A DNA stretch of 3,879 nt from a virus (taxonomy: Duplodnaviria > Heunggongvirae > Uroviricota > Caudoviricetes): the IMG/VR virus record IMGVR_UViG_2740892235_000014. One strand, 5' to 3'. The position numbers and the translations under genes are program-made. Under the pieces are notes generated by a model. It saw nothing but the letters and a program-made list of their open reading frames with translations, had not been told where the DNA came from and made no database searches. Below, piece after piece: positions 2,025-3,830 of the stretch. Numbering within the stretch: position 1 is the first letter of the stretch; each line of letters begins with the position of its first letter.

Positions 2025-2228
2025 TCAGGCTGGTGGGCAATTACCTTGCTTGTTGGGGCCGTATTGTGCTGCCATTTTCATCCGTTCAGAACGTGAATAT
2101 TTTTTTAGAAACTCATCAAGGACAAAAGCGCATGGAGCGAATCTTTCTGATTCATGCTCGAGCGCCATATTTTCGTGCTCTCTGTTCGTTTTTTGCGATG
2201 GTGTATTGGTTGATTCTTTATTGGTCAT
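2025..2228 (-). CDS. Hypothetical small protein (67 aa), paralog of the 2685-2912 ORF
   Basis: Minus-strand ORF starting MTNK. It shares the N-terminal MTN and a C-terminal motif FVLDEFLKKY (FALEDFVDKY in the paralog). It is preceded by the conserved 44-bp family A leader. No recognisable domain. Confidence 0.5.
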   Translation of the reverse strand: MTNKESTNTPSQKTNREHENMALEHESERFAPCAFVLDEFLKKYSRSERMKMAAQYGPNKQGNCPPA

Positions 2229-2236
2229 TGTGTGTA

Positions 2237-2280
2237 CCTGTAAAGCAATGCGCCGGAGTTCCTCACGCCACGGCGCTGAT
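2237..2280. repeat. Family A conserved leader element, copy 1 (44 bp, internal hairpin GCGCCG-N15-CGGCGC)
   Basis: 41/44 identical to 2921-2964. It lies 9 nt upstream of the minus-strand start codon at 2228. On the plus strand the hairpin is followed by TGATGTTTTTTATTCTTT. Confidence 0.65.
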
Positions 2281-2285
2281 GTTTT

Positions 2286-2390
2286 TTATTCTTTGGGTTC
2301 AATACCGCGTTGCTGTAATTCTTTTCGGATTATTCGTTTTATCCAAGCAGCTAAAGAGTCATCACCGTCTTGTTGTTGTGCTTTTTCCAT
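2286..2390 (-). CDS. Possible small ORF (34 aa, MEKAQQQDGDDSLAAWIKRIIRKELQQRGIEPKE)
   Basis: Found by manual translation of the minus strand; it is below the ORF-track size cutoff. Charged, helical-looking composition, weak SD (GGGAAAAG), and its stop abuts the family A copy 1 region. Could be spurious. Confidence 0.25.
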   Translation of the reverse strand: MEKAQQQDGDDSLAAWIKRIIRKELQQRGIEPKE

Positions 2391-2458
2391 CTTTTCCCGT
2401 AAGTCAGGATCTAAACGGAACTGGAAAGGAGGATTACCACGCCTTTCATTTTTGTGTG

Positions 2459-2486
2459 TTGACACGTCAATTACACTCCATATAAT
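2459..2486 (+). promoter_or_regulatory. Consensus sigma70 promoter P1 (TTGACA -16- TATAAT), plus strand, antisense to the minus-strand cluster
   Basis: -35 TTGACA at 2459-2464, 16-nt spacer, -10 TATAAT at 2481-2486; both hexamers match consensus exactly. Confidence 0.55.
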
Positions 2487-2492
2487 GTGTTT

Positions 2493-2508
2493 ATGTGTAT
2501 ATACACAT
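2493..2508. promoter_or_regulatory. Perfect 16-bp palindrome ATGTGTATATACACAT at the predicted transcription start of P1 (operator-like)
   Basis: Read directly; the reverse complement is identical. It sits 7 nt downstream of the -10 hexamer. Confidence 0.5.
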
Positions 2509-2530
2509 TACACACAACTAGCACAAAAAA

Positions 2531-2645
2531 CAACGCCCCGCAGTGATGGGAACACATACGGGGCGTCTAACCAAACCATTAATTGAGGAACGATTATGGC
2601 TATAAAAGAGCATAGCTTACTCTTTATACACACACAAACGCCCCG
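2531..2645 (+). repeat. Family B module, copy 1: leader hairpin + TCTAACCAA + SD + ATG + about 16 codons (MAIKEHSLLFIHTQTP), homologous to 3279-3390
   Basis: Hairpin ACGCCCCG / CGGGGCGT (2533-2540 / 2559-2566), SD GAGGAA at 2585-2590, ATG at 2596, then TACACACACAAACG. It aligns block-for-block with copy 2. The downstream 240-codon reading frame looks like antisense junk (S/C/R-rich) running across the minus-strand genes. Confidence 0.6.
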
Positions 2646-2684
2646 GAAACGGAATAATCCGTTTCATAGTTCGGTTTTGTGCAC

Positions 2685-2912
2685 TCATCCTGGCGGTCGG
2701 TTTTTGCCGGATTTAAGCCGCCGTGGGTATTTATCGACAAAATCTTCAAGGGCAAATTTTTCTGGTGGCACTAAGCGCGGCGCTGGTGGTGGTATTTTTG
2801 TTCTGGTTAGTTCTTCCTCAAGTCTGGCGCAGGCTTCTGACTGCCTTTGCCGGATGATTTCATCATCTTGCGTTTGCGTGTCTTGTATTGGTGATAGTGT
2901 GTTGTTGGTCAT
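2685..2912 (-). CDS. Hypothetical small protein (75 aa), paralog of the 2025-2228 ORF; probably co-transcribed with the upstream RHH gene
   Basis: Minus-strand ORF starting MTNN, with an acidic, proline-rich middle and the C-terminal motif FALEDFVDKY. Preceded by family A copy 2. No recognisable domain. Confidence 0.55.
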   Translation of the reverse strand: MTNNTLSPIQDTQTQDDEIIRQRQSEACARLEEELTRTKIPPPAPRLVPPEKFALEDFVDKYPRRLKSGKNRPPG

Positions 2913-2920
2913 GATACTGC

Positions 2921-2964
2921 CCTGTAAAGCAATGCGCCGTAGTACCTCACACCACGGCGCTGAT
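2921..2964. repeat. Family A conserved leader element, copy 2 (44 bp, hairpin GCGCCG-N15-CGGCGC)
   Basis: 41/44 identical to 2237-2280. It lies between the RHH stop (2970) and the start codon at 2912. Confidence 0.65.
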
Positions 2965-2969
2965 AGTGA

Positions 2970-3149
2970 TTATTCTGATTCTTTGGCCTTGCGGCGCTGG
3001 CGGCGTTTGATCTCGCCTTCAAGTGCCGAAACGATAAATTGCCCTGTACTTTCGCCATCTTCCTTTAAATTTTCTACAGCATCAGCTATTGCGTGTGGTA
3101 CTCGAGCCTCAAGCTTTTTGGATTTTGCATTAACTGCTTTTGTTGCCAT
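2970..3149 (-). CDS. Arc-type ribbon-helix-helix DNA-binding protein (59 aa), putative transcriptional repressor
   Basis: Internal start ATG at 3149 with SD GAGGAA 8 nt upstream. The protein MATKAVNAKSKKLEARVPHAIADAVENLKEDGESTGQFIVSALEGEIKRRQRRKAKESE aligns with phage P22 Arc as I remember it: RWP-REVLDLVRKVAEENG-RSVNSEIYQRV versus RVP-HAIADAVENLKEDG-ESTGQFIVSAL. The 106-aa extension in the ORF track has no SD and a hydrophobic junk-like N-terminus. Confidence 0.7.
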   Translation of the reverse strand: MATKAVNAKSKKLEARVPHAIADAVENLKEDGESTGQFIVSALEGEIKRRQRRKAKESE

Positions 3150-3170
3150 ATCTGATTTCCTCGTTATTAG

Positions 3171-3251
3171 GTGGCTGACAGTATACACACAAGAAAACGG
3201 AAAAACACTATTGACGTGGCTGACACCCGTTACTAATATAGTGGCTGACAC
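3171..3251. promoter_or_regulatory. Three direct repeats of GTGGCTGACA (3171-3180, 3216-3225, 3241-3250): candidate operator array
   Basis: Exact 10-mer three times in the divergent intergenic region. Copy 2 lies in the spacer of promoter P2 and copy 3 at its predicted transcription start. RHH proteins typically bind direct or inverted repeat arrays. Confidence 0.5.
3211..3239 (+). promoter_or_regulatory. Sigma70 promoter P2 (TTGACG -17- TAATAT) for the plus-strand operon
   Basis: -35 TTGACG at 3211-3216, 17-nt spacer, -10 TAATAT at 3234-3239. It has the same position relative to the family B hairpin and ATG as P1 has in copy 1. Confidence 0.55.
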
Positions 3252-3278
3252 CTTTATCAAGGTAATCGATGAAAAGAC

Positions 3279-3390
3279 AAAGCCCCGCAAGTGTCGTTAC
3301 CACTCGCAGGGCTTCTAACCAACAACGTAAACTAGGAGCCGTTATGGTTGCTGTAAATCATATACCACACCTTGTACACACACAAACGGC
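3279..3390 (+). repeat. Family B module, copy 2: leader hairpin + TCTAACCAA + SD + ATG + first codons of the Icd-like ORF
   Basis: Imperfect 14-bp stem AAGCCCCGCAAGTG / CACTCGCAGGGCTT (3280-3293 / 3301-3314, 12/14 paired) with a 7-nt loop, SD AGGAG at 3334-3338, ATG at 3344, then TACACACACAAACG. Confidence 0.6.
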
Positions 3391-3541
3391 CTTTGTGTGG
3401 CGTTTTCTGGCACTGAGTGCCGGAGAATCTCAAATCATCCACGTAACCGCCTGGACGGAACGCGAAGCGCGTAACCGTTGCCCGTCCGGTTGTGTTGCTG
3501 TATTTGCCGCCCGTATTCGTCAGGAGGTGCGCCATGATTAA
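3344..3541 (+). CDS. Small protein (65 aa), tentatively Icd-like (host cell division inhibitor-like / P4 Ash-region type)
   Basis: SD AGGAG 5 nt before ATG at 3344. The protein MVAVNHIPHLVHTQTAFVWRFLALSAGESQIIHVTAWTEREARNRCPSGCVAVFAARIRQEVRHD fits my recollection of Icd-like proteins (VW-F-A, TE-EAR, V-FA-R); this is unverified. The alternative upstream start at 3269 (90 aa) has a weaker SD. Confidence 0.5.
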   Translation: MVAVNHIPHLVHTQTAFVWRFLALSAGESQIIHVTAWTEREARNRCPSGCVAVFAARIRQEVRHD

Positions 3542-3746
3542 TCTGTCACTTACTGACCTTAACCGCATTCAGTTTCGTGAGAAATTCACAGGGCAGCTAC
3601 TGGTCAATGTGGATAAAGGTCGCGTGGTGTGTAATTACCACTTACCAGATGAAGCAATTGTCGCCACAAGGGAATCATTACAGGAAATCACAAAACGTGC
3701 CGGAATGATTAACACGAATATTCAGGGGATGCTTTATGCACAATAA
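3534..3746 (+). CDS. Hypothetical protein (70 aa), translationally coupled to the upstream ORF
   Basis: Strong SD AGGAGG at 3523-3528, 5 nt before ATG at 3534. The start overlaps the upstream stop as ATGATTAA. The protein MINLSLTDLNRIQFREKFTGQLLVNVDKGRVV... has a balanced composition; no family recognised. The GTG at 3492 used by the ORF track lacks an SD. Confidence 0.6.
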   Translation: MINLSLTDLNRIQFREKFTGQLLVNVDKGRVVCNYHLPDEAIVATRESLQEITKRAGMINTNIQGMLYAQ

Positions 3747-3820: not shown

Positions 3821-3830
3821 NNNNNNNNNN
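3821..3830. other. Assembly gap (10 N)
   Basis: Ten consecutive n characters. Contiguity and reading frame of 3831-3879 relative to the upstream sequence cannot be assumed. Confidence 1.

Follow-up and report, generated by a model that had tools for sequence, protein, structure and literature searches.

A recurrent hairpin ahead of small genes in Escherichia phage satellites is a candidate mRNA leader module

What keeps a short leader alike in front of small genes that have themselves diverged? The question arises in a 3,879-nucleotide stretch of DNA from a virus of the Caudoviricetes (IMG/VR record IMGVR_UViG_2740892235_000014), the whole of which we call the window. On its minus strand, two 44-nt segments, copy 1 at 2237–2280 and copy 2 at 2921–2964, stand ahead of two small open reading frames (ORFs) beginning MTNK and MTNN. 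An original prediction, drawn from the letters of the window, held that the two segments are 41/44 identical, lie just 5' of the two starts and each contain a GCGCCG-N15-CGGCGC hairpin with a Shine-Dalgarno (SD)-like loop, and it offered selection on an RNA or DNA element, or recent gene conversion, as the cause. The description proved accurate. The copies match at 41 of 44 positions, the adjoining 100 nt at 35/100 (left) and 36/100 (right) in ungapped comparison; on the minus strand, 8 nt lie between the end of each segment and the ATG of MTNK (2228) or MTNN (2912); and the minus-strand loops contain GAGGAA and GAGGTA. A repeat search reported the pair as a 75-nt direct repeat with 80% identity and a spacing of 684. 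The pattern GCGCCG-N15-CGGCGC occurs at exactly two sites, 2250–2276 and 2934–2960, where shuffles expect 0.01. What the first reading had missed is the setting: both copies are intercistronic, 9 nt after the stop codon of a gene for a ribbon-helix-helix (RHH) repressor, in a regulatory module of a phage satellite.

On the leftward mRNA the core of the element is a 27-nt hairpin, which runs from 2276 to 2250 in copy 1 (GCGCCG-UGGCGUGAGGAACUC-CGGCGC) and from 2960 to 2934 in copy 2. Pairs 1–6 (GCGCCG/CGGCGC) are near-invariant, while the commonest forms read U-A, G·U, G-C, U-A and G·U at pairs 7–11 and others are partly mismatched there; the stem spans 6–11 bp, at −12 to −18 kcal/mol. Copy 2 has an 11-bp stem including G·U pairs and a UGAGG pentaloop, and folds at −24.3 kcal/mol (z −2.65) in a 71-nt context. 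Among 41 variants the loop is UGAGG in 29, UAAGG in 4 and UGAGU in 6, with rarer forms in the rest; the predicted SD-like loop, as UGAGG or UAAGG, is thus retained in 33 of them, and the U(G/A)AGG loop seems more conserved than folding alone needs. The hairpin is followed by an unpaired tail of 21 nt, AUUGCU(U/A)U(A/G)CAGG plus 8 nt, which contains a weak SD and runs up to the AUG of the small ORF. In copy 1 this tail is AUUGCUUUACAGGUACACACA (2229–2249, minus strand; weak SD CAGG; AUG at 2228) and in copy 2 it is AUUGCUUUACAGGGCAGUAUC, also with an SD (2913–2933, minus strand; AUG at 2912).

The position of the hairpin relative to the start codon is constant, as expected of cis-regulatory hairpins in general: of 54 unique contexts, 51 have exactly 21 nt between the end of the hairpin and the AUG, and the remaining three have no ORF. 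The distance is kept also in diverged copies whose tails differ at ~40% of positions. On the upstream side, the 9 nt from stop codon to hairpin is seen in RHH contexts alone. The interval is ~2 nt in the island designated L144, ~45 nt in L127 and undefined in L142, where the element stands before other small genes or in the 5' leader of an operon. With its distance to the AUG fixed and that to the upstream stop variable, the element is tied to the downstream start rather than to the end of the upstream gene.

Substitutions in the stem were examined for their effect on pairing, within a young family drawn from one genus, for which shuffle controls are suggestive only. In the leader copy of L127, UUGCCG/CGGUAA replaces GCGCCG/CGGCGC, which amounts to two double changes and one G·U pair, and the loop region UGUGAGGUACU is kept. 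At pair 9-19, L142 and L144 show A-U where the common form has G-C, and at pair 8-20 they show G-C instead of G·U; one variant has C-G for U-A at pair 10-18. Single changes in the 3' arm yield G·U pairs in L072, L137 and L144; L147 combines a C·A mismatch with a new U-A pair at the base of the stem; and in L045 a foreign 3' arm preserves the pairing. Scans of IMG/VR for non-canonical bases at 3'-arm positions 22–26 and 27 returned few variants (L133, L137 and L147). Compensatory and wobble pairing on the mRNA strand, a second general mark of cis-regulatory hairpins, is in this way present with modest support.

The same comparisons bear on the strand. Over the 41 variants, 89.4% of cells are paired in the mRNA sense versus 77.8% in the antisense, and the hairpin on its own has the greater stability in the mRNA sense for 13 of 16 variants. 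A covariance model (R1) matched copy 1 at 2233–2286 with 77.3 bits and copy 2 at 2917–2970 with 81.2 bits, versus 8.7 bits for the opposite strand, and RNAalifold found the helix independently. An RNA of the leftward strand is probable, and preferred to any plus-strand or DNA reading. Together with the fixed 21 nt ahead of at least ten diverged small-gene paralogues, the G·U or compensatory character of the stem changes upholds the suggestion of selection on a discrete element: judged from these comparisons, the element is real and is under selection or constraint.

The element is widely distributed beyond the window. Among 5,426 complete E. coli genomes, a 54-nt query found it in 1,664, at 2,712 places in all and with a maximum of seven per genome. 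Four of these places are on plasmids, and eight PLSDB records carry it; the phage collection held no match to the 1.4-kb region. All annotated examples that we fetched, including the prototype EcCICFT073, have the element in the int-alpA-proximal control region of an island of the phage-inducible chromosomal island (PICI) type. The 132 IMG/VR instances share one layout: a gene for one of 46 distinct RHH proteins, with its stop codon 9 nt ahead of the hairpin, and then, 3' of the element, a member of one small-ORF superfamily (MTDK, MTNK, MTNN, MTNE and others). Across the element, nine RHH clusters and nine downstream clusters are joined in 24 combinations, which marks it as a conserved junction between independently assorting modules. 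Because the same core recurs in 1,664 genomes with 24 flank combinations, recent gene conversion inside the island, the other cause originally proposed, fails to explain the copies. Counting copies also answered the concern that the 44-mer might be a generic repeat unrelated to these genes: it is widespread, yet tied to the module of RHH gene and small gene.

Some copies define the edges of this unit. Diverged copies precede other small ORFs with no RHH gene upstream, in L127 (1779–1832 and 1494–1547), L142 (1200–1253 and 1443–1496) and L144 (~2015–2066). In L126-type islands homology ends sharply, directly after AUUGCUAUG, with no small gene beyond it; L045 has its breakpoint within the loop, and in L127 homology begins at CCAUCAG. 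Going by its distribution, the element is a discrete cis element of Escherichia phage satellites, comprising PICIs and P4/Ash-like islands. In the searchable literature, including that on YlcI/YnfO, on RHH proteins in PICIs and on Icd-like proteins, we found neither the element nor the RHH module of Gram-negative PICIs described. The element is previously undescribed; the cis-acting leader or intercistronic mRNA hairpin is a known general kind.

The reading that we favour, and to which we would give an even chance, is that the element is a cis-acting leader or intercistronic module of the mRNA that controls translation or stability of the downstream small gene. On this reading, the folded hairpin would persist while ribosomes terminate at the RHH stop codon 9 nt upstream. 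Since the GC clamp starts where the footprint of the terminating ribosome ends, the hairpin should stay folded and block termination-reinitiation coupling, and translation of the small gene would thereby be uncoupled from that of the repressor. At −22, on the 5' edge of the initiation footprint, the hairpin could serve as a translational operator, a standby site and/or a determinant of processing and stability. Its sequence-specific loop may be read by a trans factor, either a protein or the 30S subunit, and a GC↓AUU motif of RNase E type at its 3' foot might be used as well. The combined effect would be to set the output of the small protein relative to that of the RHH repressor.

Several results weigh against this proposal. 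Partition-function folding of 81 natural contexts gave the same accessibility of the ribosome-binding site (RBS) in wild-type, arm-reversed and deleted versions, and on this ground we rejected the idea that the hairpin is an insulator keeping the RBS open. No trans-acting partner emerged, and inside the island loop and tail had no matches but the trivial antisense ones and chance 9-mers. Covariation is thin, with three double-change pairs that come mostly from single diverged copies, and the pattern used to gather the first 37 alignment rows kept the lower stem fixed. There is only a modest asymmetry between the strands, and at pair 10-18 A·C cells, for which the opposite strand would have G·U, are seen in 13 variants. 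The 'type III' islands (L126, at least 14 loci) have the element after the RHH gene and no small ORF 3' of it. Finally, the element is absent after the RHH homologues of E. ruysiae, Citrobacter, Dryocola and Edwardsiella (four loci found), which indicates that it is dispensable for the RHH gene.

Known systems offer partial parallels to the leader function that we favour. The intercistronic stabiliser hairpins of the repetitive extragenic palindromic (REP) class, as in malE-malF, and operons processed by RNase E, such as papBA, likewise place a GC-rich extragenic hairpin at many loci in a position suited to unequal expression, and the GC↓AUU at the 3' foot is a site of their RN↓WUU type. Unlike REP, the element has an apparently unrelated sequence, is confined to satellite modules, has a conserved loop and a constant 21 nt to the AUG, and occurs in 5' leaders too. 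The thrS operator, the rpsO pseudoknot and the coat-protein hairpins of MS2 and Qbeta are also hairpins with a sequence-specific loop at the 5' border of an RBS. This is an analogy of position only, in that the hairpin of the element includes neither SD nor AUG and its partner protein is only hypothetical. The boxB hairpin of the lambda and P22 nut sites is likewise a short pentaloop hairpin in an early phage-type operon, and here as there arginine-rich peptides are encoded nearby (KRRQRRKAK in an RHH tail; ARKRRRRK in an MTDK protein). In contrast to nut, there is no boxA, the loop is UGAGG, and the RHH1, MTNK and MTNN proteins lack arginine-rich motifs. That the U(G/A)AGG loop is read by an RNA-binding protein of the satellite or helper, for example one of the F-x-L-E-x-F small proteins or an arginine-rich RHH tail, is a narrower proposal with only a small chance of being right.

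Among the alternatives to leader function, the one that survives best is that the element is nothing but a mosaic junction, a recombination linker kept similar by exchange or gene conversion and devoid of RNA function. The 24 combinations of flanking clusters fit this directly, as do the breakpoints at the edges of the element (L126) or inside it (L045) and the Chi sites (GCTGGTGG) that lie 139–208 nt to its left in both modules; moreover, all copies come from one genus, which implies a short divergence time. Recombination alone nevertheless leaves unexplained why substitutions spare the 6-bp clamp and why the changes in the stem are G·U or compensatory, why 21 nt to the AUG is constant in copies that have drifted by ~40%, and why the foreign 3' arm of L045 pairs. 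As a full account it is therefore unlikely. It is compatible with the leader function rather than exclusive of it: as the sole conserved stretch between variable genes, the element would also be a homology patch at which modules of RHH gene and small gene are reshuffled.

The leftward mRNA might instead carry a weak intrinsic terminator or attenuator, at which most transcripts end after the RHH gene and a fraction enters the small gene; this would make use of the same intercistronic position, which fits differential expression. A consensus scan flags the minus strand of copy 2 (12 pairs, tail ATTGCTTTAC), and the tail of L144 is U-richer (AUUGUUUUAAAGG). However, the scan flags neither copy 1 nor the CFT073 type, and d'Aubenton-Carafa-type scores range from −27 to −47, compared with +44 for the operon's true terminator. 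The latter, a strong intrinsic terminator at 1925–1950 on the minus strand at the end of the RHH1-MTNK operon (d-score +43.9), was the internal positive control of the scoring. A terminator needs neither a conserved loop nor a constant distance to the AUG, and the element is found in 5' leaders too. An ordinary intrinsic terminator was rejected for both strands, as the GC-rich hairpin is there and the U-tract is not (tail scores 1.3–2.0; d-scores −27 to −49), and an attenuator we consider rather improbable.

The 6-N15-6 inverted repeat might also be a DNA site, bound by a conserved protein of the satellite, the helper phage or the host, where it could form a roadblock or be the target of a recombinase or replication factor. 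The arms do form a perfect palindrome with a 21-bp centre spacing, and conservation reaches into the non-palindromic centre. Yet the inner arms are symmetric only via transitions, as G·U pairs in RNA predict, and in L127 the outer arms form a different palindrome around the kept centre, which would be odd if a protein were to read the arms. None of the candidate proteins is present in every context, and a DNA site is a doubtful proposition, with a slight chance.

Function on the plus strand, as a terminator of rightward int/alpA read-through or as the 3' end of a sar-like antisense RNA over the RBS, was suggested by the TGATG-T6 that follows copy 1. Precedents exist in arc-ant/sar of P22 immI and pMV158 copG-repB/RNAII. 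There too, a short conserved spacer comes after a small RHH autorepressor gene and controls how the next gene of the operon is translated, as the target of a countertranscript (sar; RNAII) with its own promoter and terminator. The original observation of a T6 run after copy 1 and an interrupted T-rich tract after copy 2 stands. The opposite-strand terminator built on it does not, since the T-run is confined to copy-1-type variants and missing in copy 2, CFT073 and most variants, and the scores of the plus strand are −36 to −49. The hairpin is weaker in the plus sense in 13 of 16 variants, in keeping with a structure that is better on the sense strand. Unlike sar and RNAII, the element has no antisense promoter or conserved antisense terminator that we could find: no plus-strand promoter-like site lies within the 5' end of either small gene (2150–2240 and 2830–2925), and sar/RNAII-type control was rejected. 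A plus-strand function is very unlikely.

Stimulation of stop-codon readthrough, by a hairpin 9 nt past the RHH UAA that would yield an RHH-linker-MTNx fusion, is extremely unlikely. In its favour, 43 of 50 unique RHH contexts, both window copies among them, have the small ORF in frame with the RHH stop and 19 open codons between, and the 8–9-nt spacer resembles that of viral readthrough stem-loops. Against it, the chance of an in-frame and open arrangement is ~0.13, and the loop has an in-frame UAA in 7 of 50 contexts, one of them the functional prototype EcCICFT073. The RHH gene stops at UAA, frequently within UAAU, which is the most efficient terminator in E. coli, and diverged copies lack an upstream ORF or have extra stops.

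Known families and motifs gave no better identification. A cmscan of the whole window with Rfam 15 (E ≤ 10) yielded six weak matches, none over 2230–2290 or 2910–2970, and the C4/IsrK antisense RNA families of P1/P4-type immunity regions, expected beside icd-like genes, gave no match. The promoter scan found no internal promoters, and a −10-like AATAAT overlapping the RHH stop is unconserved in CFT073. A bacterial selenocysteine insertion sequence or programmed readthrough signal was rejected on the UAA stop and on the frame closed by UAA in 7 of 50 contexts, and frameshifting on the lack of a slippery site. A nut site was dismissed, with no CGCUCUUA-like boxA and a U(G/A)AGG loop that is not GNRA-like. 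So was a REP or bacterial interspersed mosaic element: all fetched copies are in satellite regulatory modules, and the sequence looks unlike the REP consensus, with no formal alignment made. A coding function was rejected, as neither the plus-frame peptide (CKAMRRS.SHHGAD) nor the minus −1-frame peptide (HQRRGV..GALLYR) shows synonymous-biased variation. A CsrA site was set aside with the GGA core present in a minority of loops only, and no motif for Sigma-54, CRP, LexA or IHF fits on inspection.

The host of the element could be placed through E. coli chromosomes that match the window at 99–100% identity. In the O145:H28 strain 12E115 the window is the left end of an island of ~15.5 kb inserted in tqsA, with int, alpA, an icd-like gene, DUF4222, a RepA helicase, ssb and perC, and with a full HK97-type set for head and packaging: capsid, protease, portal, connectors, HNH, TerS and TerL. 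The capsid-forming PICI EcCIEDL933 has the same gene content (bioRxiv 10.1101/2022.09.08.507074); on this likeness, the window forms the left end of a capsid-forming PICI that resembles EcCIEDL933. It opens on the plus strand with int (1–1218) and alpA (1593–1781), the latter encoding a 62-aa AlpA of family PF05930. The mechanism reported for P. aeruginosa AlpA, an antiterminator, is not transferable to this protein: the P. aeruginosa antiterminator is a Q21-like eight-helix protein (PMC9371919). Upstream of alpA, direct repeats (..ACGTGACACAATCA / CCTGACACAATCA) at 1263–1303 and 1513–1533 are candidate sites for AlpA. Between int and alpA, at 1405–1433, stands a perfect 12-bp inverted repeat rich in AT (AAAGGCATAAAA/TTTTATGCCTTT), which has a weak Rfam match to BSnc120 (E 0.0018), far below gathering. 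The assembly gap, a run of 10 N at 3821–3830, falls within a gene that starts at 3736.

Downstream of alpA are two tandem modules, each composed, in leftward order, of an RHH gene, the element and a small ORF. In module 1, the minus-strand RHH1 gene (2286–2465; MSTHKNERRG...GIEPKE) encodes an Arc-like protein (phrog_228, Arc-like repressor, 1.5e-6) and its stop codon lies 9 nt 5' of hairpin 1. The MTNK ORF of 67 aa (2025–2228, minus strand) has the motif ERFAPCAFVLDEFL and matches phrog_21027 (2e-12). In module 2, the minus-strand RHH2 gene (2970–3150; MATKAVNAKS...RRQRRKAKESE), whose stop codon is 9 nt 5' of hairpin 2, belongs to the YlcI/YnfO family (phrog_949, 3e-23; NF041551, 1e-16), and the MTNN ORF of 75 aa (2685–2912, minus strand) has the motif FALEDFVDKYPRRLK..NRPPG. 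Together, the small ORFs that stand 3' of the element make up a superfamily restricted to E. coli and marked by a C-terminal F-(A/P)-L-E-x-F motif, beyond which ..YPRRLK...NRPPG is often present; E. coli was the sole source found for homologues of MTNN and the others. All are annotated as hypothetical and have no Pfam match, and P4/Ash-type islands hold several paralogues in tandem.

Each module has a rightward promoter opposite it, together with a leader hairpin and an icd-like reading frame. The RHH genes are transcribed divergently from this icd-like/replication operon, whose promoter is overlain by operator-like repeats. The plus-strand control region of module 2 (3171–3250) has three GTGGCTGACA repeats around the promoter TTGACG-17-TAATAT (3211–3239); that of module 1 (2459–2508, plus strand) has the consensus promoter TTGACA-16-TATAAT followed by a perfect 16-bp palindrome, ATGTGTATATACACAT. 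The N-termini of the RHH proteins and the operator sequences vary between islands, with GTGGGCCACACC repeats in CFT073. The RHH proteins look like immunity-type master repressors; in the founding PICI paper the global repressor of Gram-negative PICIs was unknown. Module 1 has just the first ~15 codons of the icd-like frame (MAIKEHSLLFIHTQT versus MVAVNHIPHLVHTQT; 2596–2640 versus 3344–3390), and the homology between the modules in this frame stops near the end of the MTNN gene, a break that suggests two control regions brought together in tandem more than a clean duplication.

A second structured element lies in the rightward leader on the plus strand, just 5' of the icd-like start, at 3280–3314 in module 2 and 2533–2566 in module 1. 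Its stem is 14 bp in module 2, to which the CFT073 copy is identical, and 8 bp with a different sequence at the same place in module 1; it has no Rfam (C4/IsrK) match and looks terminator-like on the minus strand. Three Chi sites (GCTGGTGG) occur in one orientation on the plus strand (873–880, 2029–2036 and 2782–2789), where shuffles expect 0.12, and two of them are inside the small ORFs, 139–208 nt from each copy of the element. The flank of the CFT073 element reads GCTGGTGA. Long plus-strand ORFs run antisense across the leftward operons, in the window at 1834–2586 (250 aa) and 2596–3318 (240 aa) and elsewhere in L003 (CFT073; 2343–3629, 428 aa) and L144 (1403–3391, 662 aa), and pieces of them are labelled 'Icd-like' or 'BRO-N' pseudogenes by the annotation pipeline PGAP. 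They are probably annotation artefacts, though strikingly open, and their openness might matter if alpA-driven transcription runs rightward through the region.

The silencing and induction of Gram-negative PICIs are poorly understood. The window presents a modular, immunity-like control region, in which RHH genes face a replication and packaging operon across operator-like repeats, and the module of hairpin and RBS is its sole sharply conserved non-coding piece. If the element is mainly a recombination linker, it would account for the shuffling of repressor specificities and cargo genes between satellites. If it controls the small genes post-transcriptionally, it would provide a handle to dissect satellite regulation and to engineer PICI-based tools. 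And were it a dedicated translational operator, small cargo or regulatory genes of PICIs would be switched post-transcriptionally on helper infection, adding a new layer of RNA-protein control to the conflict between satellite and helper.

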